A DNA stretch of 64,000 bases, taken from the NCBI GenBank assembly GCA_012521815.1, contig JAAYLR010000141.1, forward strand, positions 414-64,413, read 5' to 3'. The number at the start of each line of letters is the position of its first letter. Position 1 is the stretch's first letter. The DNA is from Acidobacteriota bacterium. Lineage in GTDB: Bacteria > Acidobacteriota > Thermoanaerobaculia > Multivoradales > JAGPDF01. The notes beneath the pieces were generated by a model. The model saw nothing but the letters and a program-made list of their open reading frames with translations, was not told the DNA's origin and did not search any database. A program made the translations under genes and the position numbers. This document shows positions 53,551-64,000 of the stretch, in pieces.

Positions 53551-54968
53551 GCGCCCGGCTGCTCGTGGTCGACGACGAGCCGAGCATGCTCGACATGCTC
53601 TCGCTGCTCTGGCGTGCCGAGGGTTACGAGGTCGAGACCGCCCGCTCGGTCGGCGAGGCGCGCGAACGGCTCGCCGAGCGGCCCGTCGACCTGGTGCTCT
53701 GCGACATCCTGATGCCGGACGGCAACGGCCTCGAGCTGCTGCGGGAGATCAAGGCGTCCGACCCGCGGGTGGCGGTGATCATGATGACCGCCTACACCTC
53801 GACGAAGAGCGCCCTCGAGGCGATGAAGCTCGGCGCCTACGACTACATCTCCAAGCCGTTCGCCGATCTCGAGGAGCTCAAGCTGCTCGTCGCCAAGGCG
53901 CTCGAGAAGACCCAGCTGGTCGACGAAAACGTCTATCTGCGCGGCGAGCTCGAGCGGCGTTACGCCTTCGACCGGATCGTCGGCCGCAGCCCCCGGATGC
54001 GCGCCGTCTTCGAGCTCGTGGAGCGGGTCGCGCGCACCCATTCCACCGTCCTGATCCAGGGCGAGAGCGGCACCGGCAAGGAGCTCGTCGCCCGGGCGAT
54101 CCACTTCGCGAGCCCGCGCGCCCGGCAGCGCTTCCTCTCGGTCAACTGCGGCGCCCTGCCCGAAACCCTGCTCGAGAGCGAGCTGTTCGGCCACGAGCGG
54201 GGGGCCTTCACCGGCGCGGTGCGCGAGAAGCGGGGGCTCTTCCAGGAGGCCAACCGCGGCACCCTCTTCCTCGACGAGATCGGCGACATGTCGCTGCCGA
54301 TGCAGGTGAAACTGCTCCGGGCGCTGCAGGATCGCACCGTGCGCAAGGTCGGCGGCACCGTCGAGGAGCCGGTGGACGTGCGGATCATCGCCGCCACGAA
54401 CCAGAACCTCGCCGAGCGGCTCGCGCAGGGGACCTTCCGCGAGGACCTCTTCTACCGGATCAACGTGATTCCGATCGAGCTCCCGCCGCTGCGTGAACGG
54501 CGGGAGGACATCCCGCTGCTGGTGCACCACTTCCTGCTCGAGAGCAGCCGCCGGCTGGGGATCGAGCCGCGGCGGATCTCGGTCGAGGCGATGCGGCGGC
54601 TCGAGACCCACTCCTGGCCGGGCAACGTGCGCGAGCTCGAGAACCTCGTGGAGCGTACGCTCGCCCTCTCCACCGCCGAGGTCATCACCACCGACGATCT
54701 CCCGCTCGAGCTGCTCATCCCGGGCCAGACCGGGGCCGCGACTCCGACCCTGCCCTCCGAGGGGCTCGATCTCGAAGCCCACCTCGACGGCCTCCGGCGG
54801 GAGCTGATGCGGCAGGCGCTCGATCGCACCGGTGGCCATCAGGGGCAGGCGGCCGAGCTGCTCGGGATGAGCCTCCGTTCGTTTCGCTACTATGCCGGCA
54901 AGTGCGGGCTCGCGGGACGGCGGGACGACGAGGAGGCGGCCGCCACGCCCCCCACCGCCGAACCATGA
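53547..54968 (+). CDS. pilR: sigma-54-dependent response regulator PilR (NtrC family)
   Basis: ATGA overlap with pilS. REC domain (LLVVDDEPS...D54), AAA+ sigma54-interaction domain ([14 protein letters not shown]), C-terminal Fis-type HTH. Confidence 0.9.
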
Positions 54969-55023
54969 GAAACCGGTCTCTCCGGACCGCCGCGTCCGGA
55001 CGCCGGAGCCCGCGAGGCCGCCG

Positions 55024-58000
55024 ATGAGCCATCACCCTCCGGTCCGCAGTTCCTGCCGGGTACTGCTCCTCGCCGTCACCCTGCTGCTCGCCTCCCCCGC
55101 CGGTGGCGCCATGGCGGCGACCGATCCGGCGGCGCGCGCCCAGCCGGTCCTGCAGATCTACGGCGATCGCGACGGGCTGCCCCACAACACCGTGAGCGAG
55201 ATCGCCCTCGATCGCGAGGGGCGCCTCTGGATCGGCACCCACGACGGCGTCGCCACCTTCGACGGCCGCGCCTGGCGTACCATCGAGCTTCCCCAGCCGC
55301 ACAAGACCCACCGGATCCGGTCGCTCCTCCCCGCGCACGACGGCGGGCTCTGGATCGGCACCGAGGCGGGTGGCCTCGTCCGCTGGCGTGAAGAGGGCGC
55401 CCAGAGCATCGAGCAGGTGCGCGTGGGCGCAATCGACCTGCCGCTGAACCGCGTCAACGCGCTCCTCGAGCTCGAGACCCCGCAGGGAGAGCGCGAGCTC
55501 TGGGCGGGAACCCATGCCGGCGGCATCTTCCGCCGGCGCGGCGGCGAATGGCACCGCTACGGTACCGAGGAAGGGCTCCCGACGCTCCAGGTCTGGTCGC
55601 TCCTCGCCACCCGCGACGCGGCCGGCGCCGCCACGATCTGGGCCGGGACCCTCCGGGGGCTCGTGCGGCTCGAACCGGATGGAAACCGCTTCGAGCCGGT
55701 GCCCGGCGCGCCGGAAGCGCCGGTCGTCCGGCTCACCGCCACCCGGGACGACGCCGGCAGGCCGATCGTCTGGGCGGCGACGTTTGGCCAGGGCCTCCAT
55801 CGCCTCCAGGGCACGGCCTGGACCCGCTGGACCCGGACGGAAGGGCTGCCCAACGATTTCGTCATCGCCCTCTCCCCCTCCCGGGCCCCGGACGGCCGGT
55901 CCGGGGTCTGGGTCGGCACCGACGGCGGCGGCGTCGCGCGCGTCAGTGAAGGCGTCGATCAGGTCTTCGACGAACAGAGCGGCCTGTCGGCCACCGCCGC
56001 CGTCTACGCGCTGCTCGAGACCACCACCGCCGACGGCGTCTCAGCGCTCTGGATCGGGATGCGCAACGGCGGCCTCGCCCGGCTCCGGCGGTACGGCTGG
56101 AAGAGCTTCGTCCTCCATGACGAGGGGGCCCGGCTGCCGGTGAGCGCTCTCCTGGAGACCACCGATCCCCAGGGGAACCCCCGCTACTGGCTCGGCACCG
56201 ACGGCGGCGGCCTCTTCCGTCTCGACAGCGACGGCTGGCAGCGGCTCACGGGGCCGGGCGCGCCCCTGCCCGACGACACCATCCGTTGCCTGCTCGCGCG
56301 CGGCGAATCGGGCCGGGAGGAGGTCTGGGTCGGGACCCGGAACCGTGGCCTGATGCGGTTCGCGGCCGGACGGTGGCAGACCTTCGACCGCGCCGGCGGA
56401 GCGCTGCCCGATGACATCGTCGAGGCCCTCCTCGAGACCTCCGAAGCCGCCGGAGAGTCGATCCTCTGGGTCGGTACCCGCACCGGCCTCGTGCGCTTCG
56501 ATGGCCGCCGGTGGGAACGGGTCGCGACTCCTGGATGGCCGCTCGAAAGCCGTTTCCAGACGTTCGCGTCGACCCGCGACCCGAACGGCGGGCTCGTGCT
56601 CTGGGTCGGCACGGACGACGGTCTCGGGCGTCTCGAGAACGGCTCCTGGCGACTGCTCGGCACGGAGGCCGGGCTGCCGAACCCGATCGTGCGCTCGCTG
56701 CACGCCGGCACCGGCCCCGGAGGGGAGCCGGCGCTCTGGGTCGGCACCACCGGGGGCGGGGTCGCGCTGATCGATCTCGCCGCGGAGAGCCGCCCGCCCA
56801 TCCTCCTCGATCGGGGCACCCTGCCCGGGCTGCCCAACGACGTCATCCACGGGATCACGGAAGACGCGACCGGCAGCGTCTATCTCCTCACGAACCGCGG
56901 GGTCGCCCGCCTGACCCCGGAGCCGAACCCCGGACCGGATGGGGCGAGCTACCGGGTCACGAGCTTCAACCACGAGGACGGCCTGCCGCTCAACCAGGGG
57001 AACCGGGGGGCGGTGATGCGCGACCGCCACGGGCGGATCTGGGTGGGGACGGTCGGCGGCGCGGCGTTCTACGAGCCGGGCAGCGAGCGTCCCGACCAGG
57101 TCGCCAAACGGCTTCTCCTGCGTGGGCGGCTGCTCCCGGAAGGGCGGCTCCTGGAGTCCGGCGAACGGCTCTCGTACCGGTCGTCGAGCATCCGCTTCGA
57201 CTACACCCTGCTCTCCTTCTTTCGCGAGGAGACGAGCGCGTACCGTTCCCGTCTCGTCGGCCTCGAGGCGCAACCGACCTCCTGGGGCAACGAGAGCGCC
57301 CGCGAGTTCGTACACCTGCCGGCCGGCAACTACCGGTTCCAGGCCTGGGGGCGCGACTATGCCGGCAACGTCACGGGGCCCGTGGAGATCGCCTTCGCGA
57401 TCCGCCCCGCCCCCTGGCAGACGCTCTGGGCACGGCTGGCGCTCCTCGTGCTGATCGTCGGACTCGTCGCCCTGATCGTACGCCATCGTTCCCGCCGGCA
57501 TGCGCGGCGCGAGCGCGAGCTGACCGAGCAGGTGGAGGCGCGTACCCGGCAGCTGCACGAGGCGAACCTGGCCCTGATGAAGCTCTCCTACGCCGATCCG
57601 GTCACCTCGGTCGCCAACCGGCGGCGATTCGACGAGGCCCTCGAGCACGAGTGGCGGCGGGCGGAGCGGATGCGGATACCGCTCGCTCTGATCATGATCG
57701 ACGTCGACCGTTTCAAGGAGTTCAACGACACCTACGGCCACCAGCGGGGCGACGAGGTCCTGCGCACGGTGGCCACCGCGCTGAACGATGGTCTGAAGCG
57801 GAGCGGCGACCTCCTTGGCCGTTACGGCGGCGAGGAGTTCGGAGTCATCCTCCCCGACACCAGCCTCGACGGCGCCGTGCTGGTTGCCGAACAGCTGCGG
57901 CGGCGGATCAAACGGCTGGCGATCGCGCACGACGCTTCCCACGTCGCGCCGCACGTGACGATCAGTTGCGGCGTCGCCTCCCTCGAGCCGGACAAGGGCG

Positions 58001-58083
58001 GCGACATCCACCTGCTGCTGCGACAGGCCGACGCGGCGCTCTACCGCGCCAAGGAGCGCGGGCGCGACCGCGTCGCCACCTGA
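55024..58083 (+). CDS. diguanylate cyclase with N-terminal periplasmic beta-propeller (two-component-regulator-propeller / Y_Y_Y-like) sensor, TM, GGDEF domain
   Basis: Signal sequence MSHHPPVRSSCRVLLLAVTLLLASPAGGAMA. About 12 LWIGT..GGL propeller repeats. TM WARLALLVLIVGLVALIV, coiled coil, then GGDEF with RYGGEEFGVIL active site. Confidence 0.85.
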   Translation: MSHHPPVRSSCRVLLLAVTLLLASPAGGAMAATDPAARAQPVLQIYGDRDGLPHNTVSEIALDREGRLWIGTHDGVATFDGRAWRTIELPQPHKTHRIRSLLPAHDGGLWIGTEAGGLVRWREEGAQSIEQVRVGAIDLPLNRVNALLELETPQGERELWAGTHAGGIFRRRGGEWHRYGTEEGLPTLQVWSLLATRDAAGAATIWAGTLRGLVRLEPDGNRFEPVPGAPEAPVVRLTATRDDAGRPIVWAATFGQGLHRLQGTAWTRWTRTEGLPNDFVIALSPSRAPDGRSGVWVGTDGGGVARVSEGVDQVFDEQSGLSATAAVYALLETTTADGVSALWIGMRNGGLARLRRYGWKSFVLHDEGARLPVSALLETTDPQGNPRYWLGTDGGGLFRLDSDGWQRLTGPGAPLPDDTIRCLLARGESGREEVWVGTRNRGLMRFAAGRWQTFDRAGGALPDDIVEALLETSEAAGESILWVGTRTGLVRFDGRRWERVATPGWPLESRFQTFASTRDPNGGLVLWVGTDDGLGRLENGSWRLLGTEAGLPNPIVRSLHAGTGPGGEPALWVGTTGGGVALIDLAAESRPPILLDRGTLPGLPNDVIHGITEDATGSVYLLTNRGVARLTPEPNPGPDGASYRVTSFNHEDGLPLNQGNRGAVMRDRHGRIWVGTVGGAAFYEPGSERPDQVAKRLLLRGRLLPEGRLLESGERLSYRSSSIRFDYTLLSFFREETSAYRSRLVGLEAQPTSWGNESAREFVHLPAGNYRFQAWGRDYAGNVTGPVEIAFAIRPAPWQTLWARLALLVLIVGLVALIVRHRSRRHARRERELTEQVEARTRQLHEANLALMKLSYADPVTSVANRRRFDEALEHEWRRAERMRIPLALIMIDVDRFKEFNDTYGHQRGDEVLRTVATALNDGLKRSGDLLGRYGGEEFGVILPDTSLDGAVLVAEQLRRRIKRLAIAHDASHVAPHVTISCGVASLEPDKGGDIHLLLRQADAALYRAKERGRDRVAT

Positions 58084-58200
58084 CGCGGATCGTTCCGGCC
58101 CCCGGGAGCGCATCCCCGACCCGTCGCGAAGCTCCGCATTAGACTCCACGACAGACCCCGCTCGCCGCTCCGGCGAAACCGGCACCCGAGGAGCCCGACC

Positions 58201-59961
58201 ATGCCTCGCCTCGTCATCCCCTTCCTGTTCCTGATCCTGACGGCGGGTTTCACGACCGCCGCCACCGCGAGCGAACCGCCGAGCGCCGGCGAGCAGGCCC
58301 GGCTCGTGGCCGCCGAGCAGGCCGGGCGGCTTGCCCCCGGCCTCGCGATGGCGCTCGCCCGTGGCGAGACGATGCCGGTGATCGTCCGCTTCGCGTCCCC
58401 CGCCGGGGAGGCGGAGCCCGCCCGCCGCGGCGCCGCGCTGCTCGCCCGGGTACCCGCCTCCGAACGCAGCGGCGAGCGGCTCTTCACGACCGTGCCGGGG
58501 ATGGCGCTCTCCCTCTCCGCCCGGGGCCTCGCCGCGCTGCTCGCCGAGCCCGAGGTCCTCCGCGTCGATCCCGACGCCGGCGGCGGCGCCCTGCTCGCCG
58601 AAACGGTGCCGCTCGCCGGGGGCGCGGCGCTCCAGATGGCCGGTTGGACCGGCGCCGGCAGCGTGGTGGCCCTCCTCGATTCCGGGATCGACGCCGCCCA
58701 TCCCGATCTCGCCGGCGCCCTCGACGGGGAAGCCTGCTTCTGCACCACCGCGGACGGCGCCGGCTGCTGCCCGGGTGGCGGCACGACCCGCACCGGCCCC
58801 GGCAGCGCCGCCGACGACTTCGGGCACGGCACCCATCTCGCGGGGATCATCACCGGCGACGGTCACGTCGCTCCGGTCGGCATGGCCCCCGAGGCCAGGC
58901 TGGTGGCCGTCAAGGTGCTCGACGCCACGGGGGCGTTCGCCTTCAGCTCCGACATCGTCGCCGCGCTCGACTGGATCACCGCCCACCGCCCCGACGTGGA
59001 CGTCGTGAGCCTGAGCCTCGGCACCGGCGCCCTCTTCCCCGGCGTCTGCGACGACGCCACCGCCTACACCCAGCTGCTCGCCGCCGCCGTCGCCAACCTG
59101 CGCGCCCGCGGCGTGCTGGTGCTGGCCGCGAGCGGCAACCGCGGCTCCGGCACCGCGCTTCCGGCCCCCGCCTGCCTGCGGGAGGTCATCGCGGTCGGCG
59201 CCACCTGGGATGCCGACGTCGGCTACCAGGGCACGATGTGTCTGCCCCCCCCCGACGGTCCCGGACCGGACCCGGTCACCGCCCCGGGCCAGATCACCTG
59301 CTTCTCGAACACCAACGCCGAGGTCGCCCTCGTAGCCCCAGGCGCGCCGATCACCTCCACCCGGCTCGGCGGCGGCACGACGACGCTCTACGGCACCTCG
59401 CTCGCCGCCGCGGTGGCGAGCGGCTGCGCCGCGCTCCTGCGCGAGGCGGCCCCGCTCGCCTCCCCCGAGCTGCTCGCCAGCGCCCTCGCCACCTCCGCGA
59501 CCCGCCCCACCGACCGGAAGAACGGCCGCTCCTTCCCGCTCCTCGACTGCGTCCGCGCGCTCGCCGTCGCCCAGAGCGCCAACACCGCCCCCTGCACGCG
59601 CGGCGCCACCACCGCCTGCCTGCTCGGCGGCCGCTTCGAGGTGACGGTCGGCTGGCTCTCCGACGGCCACGCCACCGGCGAGGCGAAGGTCATGGCGTTC
59701 GGGGGCCAGCGGACGGAGTCCGACCAGTCGGTCTTCTTCTACTTCTTCGACGACCAGCCCGAGAACTTCGAGATGGGGGTGAAGGTGCTCGACGGCTGCC
59801 CGATCAACGGCCAGTACTGGGTCTTCATCTCCGGCCTGACGAACCGCGGCTACACGGTGCGGGTGCGCGACAGCGTGACCGGGCGGATCCGTACCTATGC
59901 GAACCCGCTCGGCAACTACCCGCAGACGGTCGGCGACACCGACGCCCTCCCCTGCTCCTGA
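58201..59961 (+). CDS. secreted subtilisin-like serine protease (S8) with an unnamed C-terminal ~110-aa domain
   Basis: Signal peptide; triad D (LLDSGID), H (HGTHLAGI), S (GTSLAAAV). The C-terminal domain FFYFFDDQPENFEMGVKVLDGC...WVFISGLTNRGYTVRVRDSVTGRIRTYANP...DALPCS is shared with the next gene. Confidence 0.85.
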   Translation: MPRLVIPFLFLILTAGFTTAATASEPPSAGEQARLVAAEQAGRLAPGLAMALARGETMPVIVRFASPAGEAEPARRGAALLARVPASERSGERLFTTVPGMALSLSARGLAALLAEPEVLRVDPDAGGGALLAETVPLAGGAALQMAGWTGAGSVVALLDSGIDAAHPDLAGALDGEACFCTTADGAGCCPGGGTTRTGPGSAADDFGHGTHLAGIITGDGHVAPVGMAPEARLVAVKVLDATGAFAFSSDIVAALDWITAHRPDVDVVSLSLGTGALFPGVCDDATAYTQLLAAAVANLRARGVLVLAASGNRGSGTALPAPACLREVIAVGATWDADVGYQGTMCLPPPDGPGPDPVTAPGQITCFSNTNAEVALVAPGAPITSTRLGGGTTTLYGTSLAAAVASGCAALLREAAPLASPELLASALATSATRPTDRKNGRSFPLLDCVRALAVAQSANTAPCTRGATTACLLGGRFEVTVGWLSDGHATGEAKVMAFGGQRTESDQSVFFYFFDDQPENFEMGVKVLDGCPINGQYWVFISGLTNRGYTVRVRDSVTGRIRTYANPLGNYPQTVGDTDALPCS

Positions 59962-59983
59962 TCTTTCCGAGGGAGGCCGCCCG

Positions 59984-61594
59984 ATGACCGCCCCGCAGCC
60001 CGTCCGGCGCCACCACGCCGTCGTCCGGCTCTTCGCCGTCGCCCTTCTGGTCGCCGCCCCCGGGCTTGCGGGTGAGCTCACGCTGCGGCCTCTCGACGGC
60101 GCGGTGCGCCCCGTCGAGAAGATCGTCAACGGCCAGCTCGACTTCGGTCACCCGGCCGTCGGCGCCCTGCTCGGCCCGCAGGGGCTGCGCTGCAGCGCGG
60201 TCCTCGTCGGCTGCCGCACCGCGCTCACCGCCGCCTCCTGTTTCTGCTCGGATCCGTTCACCGGCGAGCCGCTCGCCGGACCGGAGTGCCTCGCCCGGCC
60301 CGAGCTGCTGGACACTGCGGGCCACACGCTCTTCCTCCAGCACCACCCGCCGCTGCCGGTGCAGGAGGCGGTCGTCCACCCCGGCTACGAGCCGGGCGGG
60401 GGCCACGACCTCGCGCTCCTGCGGCTCGGCGCCGCGGCGGCGGGGATCGCCCCGCTGCCGCTCCGGGAGGGCGACCCGCCTGCCCCCGGGAGCCCGGGAG
60501 AGCTGGTCGGCTTCGGGCGCGCCGGCGGCGAGACGGAGGATTGGGGGATGAAGCGCACCGGCAGGGTCGCGCTCGCCGCCTGTGACGGGGTTCCGGACGA
60601 AGGGAACCTCTGCTGGCGGTTCACGGCGCCGCTCCCCGCGCCGGGCGAGGCCGCGAACGCCTGCGACCGGGATGCCGGCGGGGCGCTCATCGTGGCCGGA
60701 AGCATGGGCCCCCGGCTCGCCGGCATCCTCTCCGGCGGCCTCGGCACCGACTGCCTGCCGCCCGACGAGGGGTGGGCCTCGGATGTCACCGCGGCGCGCG
60801 ACTGGATCGTCGCGACCGCGCTGGACGACCCGCTCGCCCCGGCGGCCTGTGGCGACCTGCGCAGCGCGGGCGCGCCGGGGACGTTCGTGCAGGGCAGCCA
60901 CGGCGATCTCGACGGCGCCTCCCCCGACTTTCGCACGACCTTCGCGATCCCCGCCGGAAGCGTGCTGCTGCGGGTCAATCTGAACGGCGACGAGAACGGC
61001 CGCCTCGCCGAGGCGCCGGACGCCGACCTCTACCTGCGCGCCGGCGCGCCGCCCGAGCGCGACGCGTACGACTGCGCGAGCACCGGCAGCGGGCTCTTCG
61101 AGAGCTGCGAGATCGCCGCTCCCGAAGACGGCACCTGGCACGCGCTGGTGAGCCGGGAGGCCGGCGCCGGACCGTTCCAGCTCACGGCGACGAGCTTCGC
61201 CGGCCAGGCGACGGAGTGCAGCCCCGGCCCGCACACCCTCTGTGTCGACGACCAGCCCGGCGACCGGCGGTTCAAGATCGAGATCGACTACTTCTCGCCG
61301 CCGCGCGCCGTCCTCGGCCGCGGCCGGGCGATCCCCCTCGCCGAGCTCGGCGTGAGCCGGGGCGGTCTCTTCTGGTTCTTCACCGCGGACAACCCGGAGG
61401 TGCTCGTCAAGGTGCTCGACGCCTGCACCCCGGCGCTCGGCAACCGGTTCTGGGTCTTCCTCACCGCCGGGACCGACCTCGGCTACAGCCTCACCGTGAC
61501 CGATACCGCGAGCGGGCTCCAGCGCACCTACGCGAACGAGGACGGGGCACCGGCGCTGCCGGTGCAGGACGTCGACGCCTTCCCCTGCCCCTGA
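59984..61594 (+). CDS. trypsin-like (S1) pseudo-protease with the same C-terminal domain (His and Ser of the triad appear substituted)
   Basis: GGGAGG RBS; signal peptide. IVNGQ..., then CRTALTAASC where the trypsin TAAHC His becomes Ser; DLALLRL keeps the Asp; CDRDAGGAL replaces GDSGGP, so Ser becomes Ala. The C-terminal domain is homologous to the S8 C-terminus. Confidence 0.8.
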   Translation: MTAPQPVRRHHAVVRLFAVALLVAAPGLAGELTLRPLDGAVRPVEKIVNGQLDFGHPAVGALLGPQGLRCSAVLVGCRTALTAASCFCSDPFTGEPLAGPECLARPELLDTAGHTLFLQHHPPLPVQEAVVHPGYEPGGGHDLALLRLGAAAAGIAPLPLREGDPPAPGSPGELVGFGRAGGETEDWGMKRTGRVALAACDGVPDEGNLCWRFTAPLPAPGEAANACDRDAGGALIVAGSMGPRLAGILSGGLGTDCLPPDEGWASDVTAARDWIVATALDDPLAPAACGDLRSAGAPGTFVQGSHGDLDGASPDFRTTFAIPAGSVLLRVNLNGDENGRLAEAPDADLYLRAGAPPERDAYDCASTGSGLFESCEIAAPEDGTWHALVSREAGAGPFQLTATSFAGQATECSPGPHTLCVDDQPGDRRFKIEIDYFSPPRAVLGRGRAIPLAELGVSRGGLFWFFTADNPEVLVKVLDACTPALGNRFWVFLTAGTDLGYSLTVTDTASGLQRTYANEDGAPALPVQDVDAFPCP

Positions 61595-61633
61595 ACGGCC
61601 CGCCGGCAGAGCCGCTCCCGGCTCCGGCCAGGG

Positions 61634-62929
61634 CTAGGTGCCGGCGGTGATCCGTTTCCCCTCCGACTTGGCGATGATCGTCGCCACCATCGCATCGCCG
61701 GTGACGTTGAGGACCGTCCGGAGCATGTCGAGCGGCCGGTCGACCGCGAGGATCAGCGCCAGCCCCTCGACCGGCAGCCCGACGGCGTTCAGGACGATGA
61801 TCAGCATCACGATGCCGGCTCCCGGCACCCCCGCGGTGCCGATGGAGGCCAGGGTCGCCGTCACGATGATCGTCAGCTGCTGGGCGAGCGTCAGCTCGAT
61901 GCCGAACACCTGGGCGATGAAGACGGCGGCGACTGCCTGATAGAGGCTGGTGCCGTCCATGTTGATCGTCACCCCGACGGGGAGCACGAAGCTGGTGATC
62001 TCGTTGCTCACCCCCAGCTCCTTCTCCACCTGCTCCATCGTGACGGGCAGCGTGGCGGCGCTCGAGCTGGTCGAGAACGCGACGAGCTGCACCGGGAAGA
62101 GCGCCCGGTAGAACTGCCGGAAGCTCACCCCGGAGAAGACGCGGATGAACAGCGGATAGAGGAGCAGCGCGACCGCCAGGAGCCCGCCGATCACCACCAG
62201 CGCATAGAGGCCGAGCGTCGTGAAGAGGTGCAGCGAGTCGGCGAGGCTGTCGCCCGAGAAGTCGACGATCAGCCCGGCCATGAGGGCGAGCACCCCGACG
62301 GGGGCGAACCGCATGATGAACTCGATCATCTTCAGGACGATCTCGTTGACGCCGGAGATGAAGCCGCTCACCACCTCCACGTGCGGATGCCGGACCGCCA
62401 CCATCGCCACCCCGAAGAGCATGGCGAAGAAGATGACCTGCAGCATGTTCCTGTTCTCTGAGGCGGCGGCGACCGCGTTTTCGGGGATCGCCTCCACGAG
62501 GAACTGCAGCGGGCTGCCCTCCAGGAGCCCCGCGGCGGTCACCTGCTGCCCCTCCACGTCCCCTCCGTACCGCGCGAGGAACTCCACCCGCTTCTCCGCG
62601 GGGAAGGAGTTGCCCGGCTGGACGAGGTTGACGAGGAGCAGCCCGATCGTCACCGCCAGCACGGTGGTGAGGATGTAGATCGCGATCGTCTTGACCCCGA
62701 TCCGCGACAGCCGCGAGATGTCCTTCAGGCCCGCGATGCCCGTGACCAGGGAAGCGAAGATGAGAGGAACGGCGATCAGCTTGAGCAGGTTCAGGAAGAT
62801 GACGCCGAACGGCTTGACCCAGTCGCGCACCAGCCAGTCGGCACCGGCTGCCACCGCAGCGATGCCGATCAGCACGCCCGCAAACATGCCGAGCAGGATC
62901 TTCCAGTAGAGGGGCAGGCGTCTCCACAT
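61634..62929 (-). CDS. dicarboxylate/amino acid:cation symporter (DAACS family, GltP/DctA-like)
   Basis: 431 aa, 8-10 TM; conserved blocks ...FDRLRTM-like (AVDRPLDMLRTVLNVTGD) and ...SSSAATLP... Confidence 0.9.
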   Translation of the reverse strand: MWRRLPLYWKILLGMFAGVLIGIAAVAAGADWLVRDWVKPFGVIFLNLLKLIAVPLIFASLVTGIAGLKDISRLSRIGVKTIAIYILTTVLAVTIGLLLVNLVQPGNSFPAEKRVEFLARYGGDVEGQQVTAAGLLEGSPLQFLVEAIPENAVAAASENRNMLQVIFFAMLFGVAMVAVRHPHVEVVSGFISGVNEIVLKMIEFIMRFAPVGVLALMAGLIVDFSGDSLADSLHLFTTLGLYALVVIGGLLAVALLLYPLFIRVFSGVSFRQFYRALFPVQLVAFSTSSSAATLPVTMEQVEKELGVSNEITSFVLPVGVTINMDGTSLYQAVAAVFIAQVFGIELTLAQQLTIIVTATLASIGTAGVPGAGIVMLIIVLNAVGLPVEGLALILAVDRPLDMLRTVLNVTGDAMVATIIAKSEGKRITAGT

Positions 62930-62937
62930 GGCGCGGT

Positions 62938-64000
62938 TCAGCGGGGAATGACCGGCAGGACGATGTGCGAGGGGTACTCCGGCGAGCGCATGACCGTCTG
63001 CCGCGCCGTCTCCATCCGCACCGAGGTCATCGGGTCTTCACCGGTGTTCAGGTTCCGGTCGAAGCGCGGGAAGTTGCTGCTCGAGATCTCCACCCGCAGG
63101 CGGTGGCCGGGGAGGAAGACGTTGCTCGTGGCCCAGAGGTCGATCTCGTACTCGTACACCCGCCCCGGCTCGAGCAGCTCGGCGGGCGCCGCCTTCCCCT
63201 TCCGGTAGCGGGCGCGCACGATGCCGTCCTGGAGGTTCTGGGCGTACCCGTCGGGGTGCACGTCGACGAGCTTGGCCGTCCAGTCGGTGTCCCGGGCGCT
63301 CGTGGCGGCGTAGAGGACGACCCGGATCGGCCCCGTCACCTCCAGCGCCTCTTCGAGGACGGGCGTCGTGTAGACGAGGACGTCCTGGCGCCTCTCCGCC
63401 GCGATCTGGTTCGCCGGCCCCGACGGCACCCGGCTGCAGCAGGTGTTGCCGCCGAGCGTGGGCACGGGGTCGTTCGGATCGTAGGTGAACTCGTCCCGCC
63501 CCGGCTGGCGCGGGGGCTGCAGGCTCAGGGTGCCGTTGCCGGCAACCGAGTTCGCCGGCCCCTCGCCGCCGAAGTAGTAGTTCGTGTAGCGGGTGCGGGC
63601 GAGCGGCCACTCGTTCTCGTGACGCCAGACGTTCTCCCCCATGACGAAGATCTTGACCGGCGGCTCGCTGTCCACGCCGTTGTCGATCCCCTTGAGCCAG
63701 TGATCGTGCCAGCGCAGGTAGAGCTTGCGCATCTCCAGCTCGGCCGCCGCACCGAAGTCGATACCCCGCTCCGGCCCTTCGCGCGGGGCGTCCGGCTTGT
63801 CCGTCCGCGCCCCGGTCTCGTGCGGCCAGGGGCCGATGATCAGATGCTTCCCCTTCCGGGCGCGCTCCGAGGGGCTCGCCGTGGTGATCCGGACGTGGTC
63901 GTCGAGCGCGCCGCGGAGGAAGAGGTCGTACCAGCCCTCGACGACCAGGAGCGGCACCGTGATCTGCTCGATCTCGTTCTCGAAGCTGATCCCCTTCCAG
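62938..64000 (-). CDS. CocE/NonD-family (X-Pro dipeptidyl-peptidase S15-like) hydrolase, 3' portion; gene continues past the window end
   Basis: The reading frame stays open through 64000 (…WKGISFENEIEQITVPLLVVEGWYDLF…); the C-terminal beta-sandwich domain is present. The N-terminal catalytic part lies outside the window. Confidence 0.8.
   Translation of the reverse strand, partial: WKGISFENEIEQITVPLLVVEGWYDLFLRGALDDHVRITTASPSERARKGKHLIIGPWPHETGARTDKPDAPREGPERGIDFGAAAELEMRKLYLRWHDHWLKGIDNGVDSEPPVKIFVMGENVWRHENEWPLARTRYTNYYFGGEGPANSVAGNGTLSLQPPRQPGRDEFTYDPNDPVPTLGGNTCCSRVPSGPANQIAAERRQDVLVYTTPVLEEALEVTGPIRVVLYAATSARDTDWTAKLVDVHPDGYAQNLQDGIVRARYRKGKAAPAELLEPGRVYEYEIDLWATSNVFLPGHRLRVEISSSNFPRFDRNLNTGEDPMTSVRMETARQTVMRSPEYPSHIVLPVIPR

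Follow-up and report, generated by a model that had tools for sequence, protein, structure and literature searches.

Why should two neighbouring bacterial genes, one encoding a subtilisin-family (S8) serine protease and the other a trypsin-fold (S1-like) protein, end in the same kind of sequence, and what might that shared ending do? The question is raised by a gene pair at positions 58201–61594 of a 64,000-nucleotide stretch of DNA (the window) from contig JAAYLR010000141.1 of an Acidobacteriota bacterium of the Thermoanaerobaculia lineage. Soils, sediments, sponges and digesters commonly harbour Thermoanaerobaculia, but almost none have been cultured. Here, we describe the shared ending as an accessory domain that is joined to many different partners in the Thermoanaerobaculia secretome: it is a new family of a known kind, namely the accessory modules of secreted proteins. 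As to its function, we give a probability of roughly one half to the reading that it is an autonomous, multivalent binding or retention module, predicted to bind a ligand.

The relationship between the two proteins is confined to their C-termini. The last 124 residues of the S8 protein and the last 128 residues of the S1-like protein are 33% identical over 128 positions (BLASTP, E = 4e-15), a similarity well above what chance would produce, and outside these tails the proteins have nothing in common. This bears out the first-pass annotation of the locus, which had proposed that unrelated S8 and S1 N-terminal domains are each followed by a homologous C-terminal module; the open reading frame (ORF) positions and tail peptides that it quoted are also exact, with the S1-like start now revised to 59984. 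Its length of about 110 amino acids (aa) was too short, the measured module spanning about 118–124 aa (S8 aa 465–585; S1 aa 412–535). The 'GxRF.V.V' strand that it had placed ahead of the module is indeed present but belongs inside it, since the module starts upstream of the strand at a Cys-x7-Cys pair. Four cysteines are found in copy 1, at the end of the S8 protein (Cys465, Cys473, Cys533 and Cys585), and four in copy 2, at the end of the S1-like protein (Cys412, Cys420, Cys481 and Cys535). A tblastn search and a hidden Markov model (HMM) scan of all six frames found no third copy in the window.

No existing domain model accounts for the module. Searches of the full proteins against Pfam and NCBIfam (the latter at E ≤ 1) placed no model over the tails, the tails alone gave no match in either collection even at E ≤ 10, and among 62 further members of the family neither collection placed a family over the shared region; a reading as a named domain was therefore rejected. 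NCBIfam/TIGRFAM models of sorting signals matched neither of the two tails nor any of the 62 further members. A profile search of all PDB sequences gave no true match, a Fab hit at E = 0.03 being judged spurious, and full-text literature searches yielded no description of the domain. The module thus remains unnamed, as first suggested: Pfam, NCBIfam and PDB were searched for an established domain that it might match, and none appeared. Predicted secreted peptidases have been reported from some marine Acidobacteriota metagenome-assembled genomes (MAGs), those of Candidatus Polarisedimenticola and Candidatus Sulfomarinibacter (PMC8528874).

The two copies belong to a very large family. A profile built from the two tails, run first against a word-indexed database, retrieved 237 proteins, nearly all of them labelled 'hypothetical'; within this one class of Acidobacteriota, the module is common to hundreds of different secreted proteins. 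An alignment of 72 sequences (A2) was searched exhaustively against 1.84 billion cluster representatives. Of these, 10,749, the majority belonging to Thermoanaerobaculia MAGs, matched at E ≤ 1e-3, and 6,915 passed the stricter threshold of E ≤ 1e-30. Scanning one genome per GTDB species with a tight alignment, which biases the loci towards a 'NWEMLVKV' subfamily, gave 408 confirmed stretches. The best 80 of the 408 come nearly all from Thermoanaerobaculia or Acidobacteriota MAGs, and single MAGs hold at least 8–9 domain loci. At one locus (L009; JAAELT010000636.1, 45519–55866), and also at L056, five genes in about 10 kb each end in one or two copies; the L009 cluster suggests a local tandem expansion of carriers.

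The AlphaFold2 model of copy 1 is confident (predicted local distance difference test, pLDDT, 96.6; predicted template-modelling score, pTM, 0.90) and describes a compact all-beta domain of nine strands, a predicted fold for which there is no close solved relative. Near-invariant residues, in S8-tail numbering and judged in A2, are C3, C11, R16, F17, G31, F51, F53, F54, N60, E62, K66, L68, C71, W78, T85, V93, D95, N106, D117, A120 and C123, of which R16, N60, E62, K66, D95, N106 and D117 form the conserved polar set. The pattern of cysteine loss predicts two disulfides, C3–C11 and C71–C123. C71 and C123 disappear together: of 505 distinct copies, both are absent in 17, C123 alone in three and C71 alone in none (Fisher p = 6e-29). 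C3 and C11 likewise co-vary (p = 7e-6). The second disulfide would pin the C-terminus to the 'VKVLDGC' strand. Because the terminal cysteine is lost together with the 'LDGC' cysteine, it is better understood as a disulfide partner than as a sorting motif, and it occurs in internal copies too. The conserved Pro-Cys ending of the first-pass annotation therefore stands for its cysteine, which is nearly invariant across the family, but not for its proline, which is restricted to these two copies, varies elsewhere and is no signature; as a motif, terminal Pro-Cys was rejected. The family consensus ends in 'D-T-x-A-F-x(1-2)-C-x-stop', most commonly in the form 'TCP-stop'.

How the module is arranged within proteins was read from two samples: 90 ORFs derived from genomes, two of them truncated at the 3′ end, and the 150 representatives with the best scores. 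About 55% of the genome-sampled proteins carry two copies. The copies are joined by linkers with a median length of 34 aa and a high content of Ala, Pro and Ser. Approximately 20 of the 150 representatives have a pair of copies directly after the signal peptide, followed by 100–1200 residues that mostly lack a Pfam match and in some cases contain Big, cadherin or LamG domains. Four such proteins of about 823–843 aa (P0129, P0131, P0141 and P0144) continue for some 530–550 residues without a Pfam match, a second unannotated region. Other carriers are small and made up of just a signal peptide and a single domain. In one subfamily of small secreted proteins (P0026, P0028, P0037, P0047, P0051–P0053 and P0057), one copy is followed by a conserved 39-residue extension with eight cysteines (...CHACANNSQCAAGLLCCFTPGGNACLAPTSGGTCPLIP). 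The genomic contexts of two stand-alone domain proteins were uninformative.

Copies compared between proteins are 0.54 identical whichever pair of copy classes is taken, the value for two copies of one protein being 0.62, and the conserved core residues include none peculiar to the terminal copy. This equality, together with the lack of a terminal-specific core residue, speaks for repeated duplication of interchangeable units. Distinct copy types within tandem pairs were considered and rejected: the copies differ in only a few variable columns, above all at the residue that follows the last cysteine. Lipid anchors are rare, a lipobox-like motif being present in five of 138 full-length members.

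The partners of the module are as varied as its positions. They include many types of beta-propeller, fn3, PKD, Big_1, cadherin-like and LamG domains, together with enzymes (S8, S53, metalloproteases and purple acid phosphatase), and the commonest partner family occurs in only five of the 62 scanned members. This variety bears on whether the module might be a folding, stability or pro-domain-like appendage that promotes maturation or protease resistance and is then removed or left inert. Such a role would suit a compact, disulfide-braced unit lying C-terminal to protease domains, as in this gene pair, and it has been proposed for the bacterial pre-peptidase C-terminal (PPC) domain that the S1-like protein also contains. 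Yet the module is found mostly on proteins other than proteases, as well as in N-terminal pairs and alone, its repeated duplication is poorly explained for a chaperone, and its conservation over more than 10,000 clusters, whose partners differ widely, favours a function that does not depend on the partner. We consider an appendage of this kind highly improbable.

A module that occurs singly or in tandem, on flexible linkers, at either end of a protein or on its own, and with indifference to its partner, is by analogy behaving as binding and anchoring modules do, and the fold is autonomous, linker-borne and independent of position in the manner of an accessory domain of the lectin type or of a carbohydrate-binding module (CBM). 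The first-pass annotation had left the function between a binding module and a sorting tag; the evidence leans to binding or retention, in favour of which the expansion within one lineage and the rarity of lipid anchors also count. In the mechanism that we envisage, a Sec signal peptide would export the S8 and S1-like proteins, each with a non-catalytic module of about 120 residues at its end, and the module would tether its fused cargo to a ligand shared by all carriers. The most plausible ligands are a polymer that forms part of the producing cell's envelope or matrix, or else a scaffold protein. Such tethering would keep exoenzymes and adhesin-like proteins at or near the cell, and avidity would rise with tandem copies. 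We infer that the module acts by binding, and likewise the kind of ligand; a shared ligand belonging to the surface or matrix of the producing cell, or a scaffold protein, is likelier than a specific substrate because the cargo is heterogeneous and includes a trypsin-fold protein that appears to be catalytically dead.

The same heterogeneity sets this retention model apart from substrate targeting, in which the module would act like a CBM or bind insoluble protein or necromass, bringing enzymes onto particulate substrates and not holding them on the cell. An autonomous fold with flexible linkers, tandem copies and stand-alone forms is what such a domain would look like, and the neighbourhood of the gene pair has a nutritional appearance, with protease genes beside a PF00375 symporter and an S15 peptidase. 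However, many partners are not hydrolases (propellers, Ig, cadherin and FN3 repeats, the dead S1 domain), so that a single substrate is hard to imagine; recognizable carbohydrate-active enzymes (CAZymes) are rare among them, and structural similarity to CBMs is at the level of noise. Substrate targeting is accordingly a doubtful explanation.

Known accessory modules offer the closest parallels to the retention that we favour. CBMs, SLH, LysM and ricin-B domains and tandem dockerins are likewise small autonomous folds on flexible linkers, single or in tandem, with unrelated catalytic partners, and mostly C-terminal but at times N-terminal or stand-alone. Most partners of the module are other than CAZymes, and there is no sequence homology or significant structural homology to any of these known domains. 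PPC domains (PF04151) are also beta-sandwiches appended to the C-termini of secreted proteases, and one lies just upstream of the module in the S1-like protein; they are nevertheless a separate family, whose model misses the module in the S1 tail and the S8 tail altogether.

Several observations weigh against binding or retention. The fold search returned no lectin or CBM relative above noise, and most partners of the module, in contrast to the usual partners of classical CBMs, are not carbohydrate-active enzymes. The abundance of tandem copies among the 150 best representatives (two copies in 146, four in three) comes from a sample that is biased towards two-copy proteins because it was ranked by score. 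Position, too, is far from random: the domain lies at the C-terminal end in 128 of these 150, the last copy is within nine residues of the stop in 86 of the 88 3′-complete ORFs of the genome sample, and in 179 of 212 terminal copies exactly one residue follows the last cysteine. C-terminal bias, restriction to one lineage and diverse cargo are also hallmarks of secretion and sorting domains.

These features raise the alternative that the module directs secretion or sorting from the C-terminus, in functional analogy to the C-terminal domain (CTD) of the type IX secretion system (T9SS). Machinery specific to Thermoanaerobaculia would read it and carry the cargo across the outer membrane or attach it there, possibly removing the domain later. 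The extreme C-terminal bias, the ending fixed at Cys plus one residue (usually Pro) before the stop, and the dozens of paralogous carriers per genome with very diverse cargo in a single lineage would all follow. Some other members of the family match NCBIfam models that are split by sorting system (M36 peptidases) or labelled 'choice-of-anchor', which is also in keeping with sorting.

The C-terminal slot of the S8 protein speaks to the same point. When the protein without its tail was used as the query and the C-termini of 80 homologues were classified, seven, the closest orthologues (53–100% identity), had this domain; 17 had a hydrophobic helix and an Arg cluster, in many cases preceded by a Cys motif, resembling MYXO-CTERM or PEP-CTERM signals (P0367 is so named by JGI); 28 stopped shortly beyond the conserved '...FPRLDC...' with which the catalytic region closes; 26 had other extensions; and two were unclassified. 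The frequency of MYXO-/PEP-CTERM-like endings means that the position occupied by the module is often taken in S8 relatives by a cell-surface anchoring signal, which counts in favour of retention and of sorting alike. The likeness is one of slot and not of structure, since a PEP-CTERM or MYXO-CTERM tag combines a short motif, a transmembrane (TM) helix and an Arg cluster, whereas the module is a soluble globular unit of 120 aa. The first-pass annotation had correctly seen no TM segment and no anchor of this type: the last 60 aa contain no hydrophobic stretch (maximum 15-aa Kyte–Doolittle mean 0.76 for S8 and 1.06 for S1), and the tails end in ...DALPCS and ...DAFPCP with neither a TM helix nor an Arg cluster. 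Among the S8 homologues without a C-terminal domain, P0307–P0309 and P0328–P0347 show a recurring end, '...(I/L)FA(D/N)GFE...', right after 'FPRLDC'.

Other evidence is harder to reconcile with sorting. Proteins with tandem or fourfold copies occur often, conservation is no weaker in internal copies than in the terminal one, and N-terminal pairs precede a further 100–1200 residues. Stand-alone proteins have no cargo, and the terminal cysteine is already accounted for by its predicted disulfide. No neighbour gene recurs within ±5 kb of the 80 loci when all neighbours are clustered. The best candidates for a conserved genomic partner, a Ser/Thr kinase (9/80 loci), an FtsX-type permease (7/80) and an ECF (extracytoplasmic function) sigma factor (5/80), were rejected, and all three belong to families generally expanded in Acidobacteria.

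Comparison with T9SS CTDs (Por_Secre_tail, PF18962/TIGR04183; Bacteroidota) is instructive in both directions. These CTDs are also beta-rich, of some 80–120 aa, and found at the extreme C-terminus of diverse Sec-exported proteins, and they share with the module a restriction by lineage and many carriers per genome. The module, however, has no match to the Por_Secre_tail or type-B CTD models of Pfam and NCBIfam, and HMM comparison gave no similarity to T9SS CTDs; no solved CTD, an Ig-like sandwich of seven strands, is among its structural neighbours; and it is not single-copy and always last, but also tandem, internal, N-terminal or alone, with two conserved disulfides predicted. T9SS machinery is not known from the Thermoanaerobaculia lineage. 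On balance, a T9SS-like secretion or sorting domain is unlikely, though it is the leading alternative. Slightly less probable again is that the domain is the recognition or sorting element of an undescribed export or surface-attachment system specific to Thermoanaerobaculia; if it were, it would use a new, disulfide-braced beta fold to do the work that the T9SS CTD or the exosortase and myxosortase tags do elsewhere, and would label all surface and secreted proteins of a widespread, almost uncultured class.

Whichever function applies, a single domain without a name, counting more than 10,000 sequence clusters and dozens of carrier genes in each genome, marks a substantial and diverse share of the Thermoanaerobaculia exported proteome. 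A domain model would sharpen the annotation of thousands of 'hypothetical' proteins and serve as a simple marker for secreted and surface proteins of the class, and a solved structure would be informative because the predicted fold is without a close solved relative. Retention would show how these bacteria hold exoenzymes near the cell; a sorting signal would point to a new pathway of secretion or attachment.

The gene pair itself is laid out in table 1. The S8 protein consists of a signal peptide, a pro-region, the catalytic domain and the module. Its Pfam match, its Asp/His/Ser triad and its oxyanion Asn (D160, H212, N313 and S400, all intact by alignment to subtilisins) place it in peptidase family S8; the signal-peptide cleavage site was read by eye from the sequence. 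Between the catalytic Asp and His, at aa ~177–190 (window 58729–58770), lies a Cys-rich insertion, EACFCTTADGAGCCPGG, with five cysteines, which was not seen in the aligned subtilisins.

The S1-like protein is built of a signal peptide, read as MTAPQPVRRHHAVVRLFAVALLVAAPGLAG with cleavage before E, a degenerate trypsin domain, a PPC domain and the module, the PPC domain lying upstream of the module and apart from it. The ORF as listed covers 59897–61594 (565 aa); translation almost certainly begins with the ATG at 59984, giving 536 aa. This ATG sits 22 nt past the S8 stop with a GGAGG Shine–Dalgarno sequence 8 nt upstream, and the same start is used by public gene calls on identical metagenome contigs. 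The trypsin domain matches Pfam Trypsin (PF00089, E = 7e-13) above the gathering score, but of the His57/Asp102/Ser195 triad only the aspartate (Asp142) is kept: Ser85 ('TAASC' versus 'TAAHC', codon at 60236) takes the place of His57, and Ala231 ('DRDAGG' versus 'GDSGG', codon at 60674) that of Ser195. Because the catalytic His and Ser are replaced, the S1-like protein is probably a pseudoprotease beside an intact S8 protease. The first-pass annotation, which had described two catalytic domains, is thus right for S8, whereas the S1 domain is not classically catalytic. The best PDB sequence match of the S1-like protein, 8w20_C 'Secreted esterase', also has 'LTAASCF'; a literature search on 8w20 found no paper.

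Both proteins are predicted, from their Sec signal peptides, to be exported. The two genes are probably co-transcribed, because no terminator-like site lies between them; none was found anywhere in 57950–61750. Exact copies of both proteins are present on at least 22 contigs, among them contigs of anaerobic-digester metagenomes, and the source records are Thermoanaerobaculia or Acidobacteria MAGs. In NCBI, the exact S8 protein is HPA96583.1, 'S8 family serine peptidase [Thermoanaerobaculia bacterium]', and the exact S1-like protein is HPA96584.1, 'trypsin-like serine protease'.

Table 1. The gene pair, its parts and its neighbours, in window coordinates.
Feature	Position	Strand	Basis
Reg_prop/GGDEF diguanylate-cyclase-type protein, 1063 aa, upstream of the pair	54892–58083	+	
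Secreted S8 (subtilisin-family) serine protease gene, 586 aa	58201–59961	+	ORF; Pfam Peptidase_S8
Predicted Sec signal peptide of S8, MPRLVIPFLFLILTAGFTTAATA, cleavage before SE	58201–58269	+	read from sequence
S8 catalytic domain	58651–59508	+	Pfam PF00082, aa 151–436, E = 4e-40; subtilisin alignment
C-terminal module copy 1, S8 aa 463–586	59587–59958	+	BLASTP to copy 2; AlphaFold2; family alignment
Intergenic spacer, 22 nt, with GGAGG ribosome-binding site	59962–59983	+	sequence
Secreted trypsin-fold (S1-like) protein gene, 536 aa	59984–61594	+	gene call; Pfam Trypsin, PPC
Trypsin-fold domain without catalytic His and Ser	60155–60808	+	residue-by-residue alignment to plasma kallikrein 2any_A
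PPC domain	60938–61153	+	Pfam PF04151, aa 348–419 of the 565-aa ORF, E = 2e-11
C-terminal module copy 2, S1 aa 409–536 (536-aa numbering)	61208–61591	+	BLASTP; HMM scan
Sodium:dicarboxylate/amino-acid symporter (PF00375), downstream of the pair	61634–62929	−	
S15/PepX_C peptidase, downstream of the pair	62938–63957	−	

The genes around the pair suggest a neighbourhood concerned with protein degradation and amino-acid uptake. A role for the domain in phage receptor binding was considered and rejected, as a single IMG/VR contig has the domain and its carrier lies beside genes of replication type. That contig (IMGVR_UViG_3300048838_000781; L088:3558-5351) encodes a protein of 597 aa with no Pfam match and one terminal copy, near AAA_24, PD-(D/E)XK nuclease and helix-turn-helix (HTH) genes, and could represent cargo of a prophage or else host sequence that was assigned wrongly.

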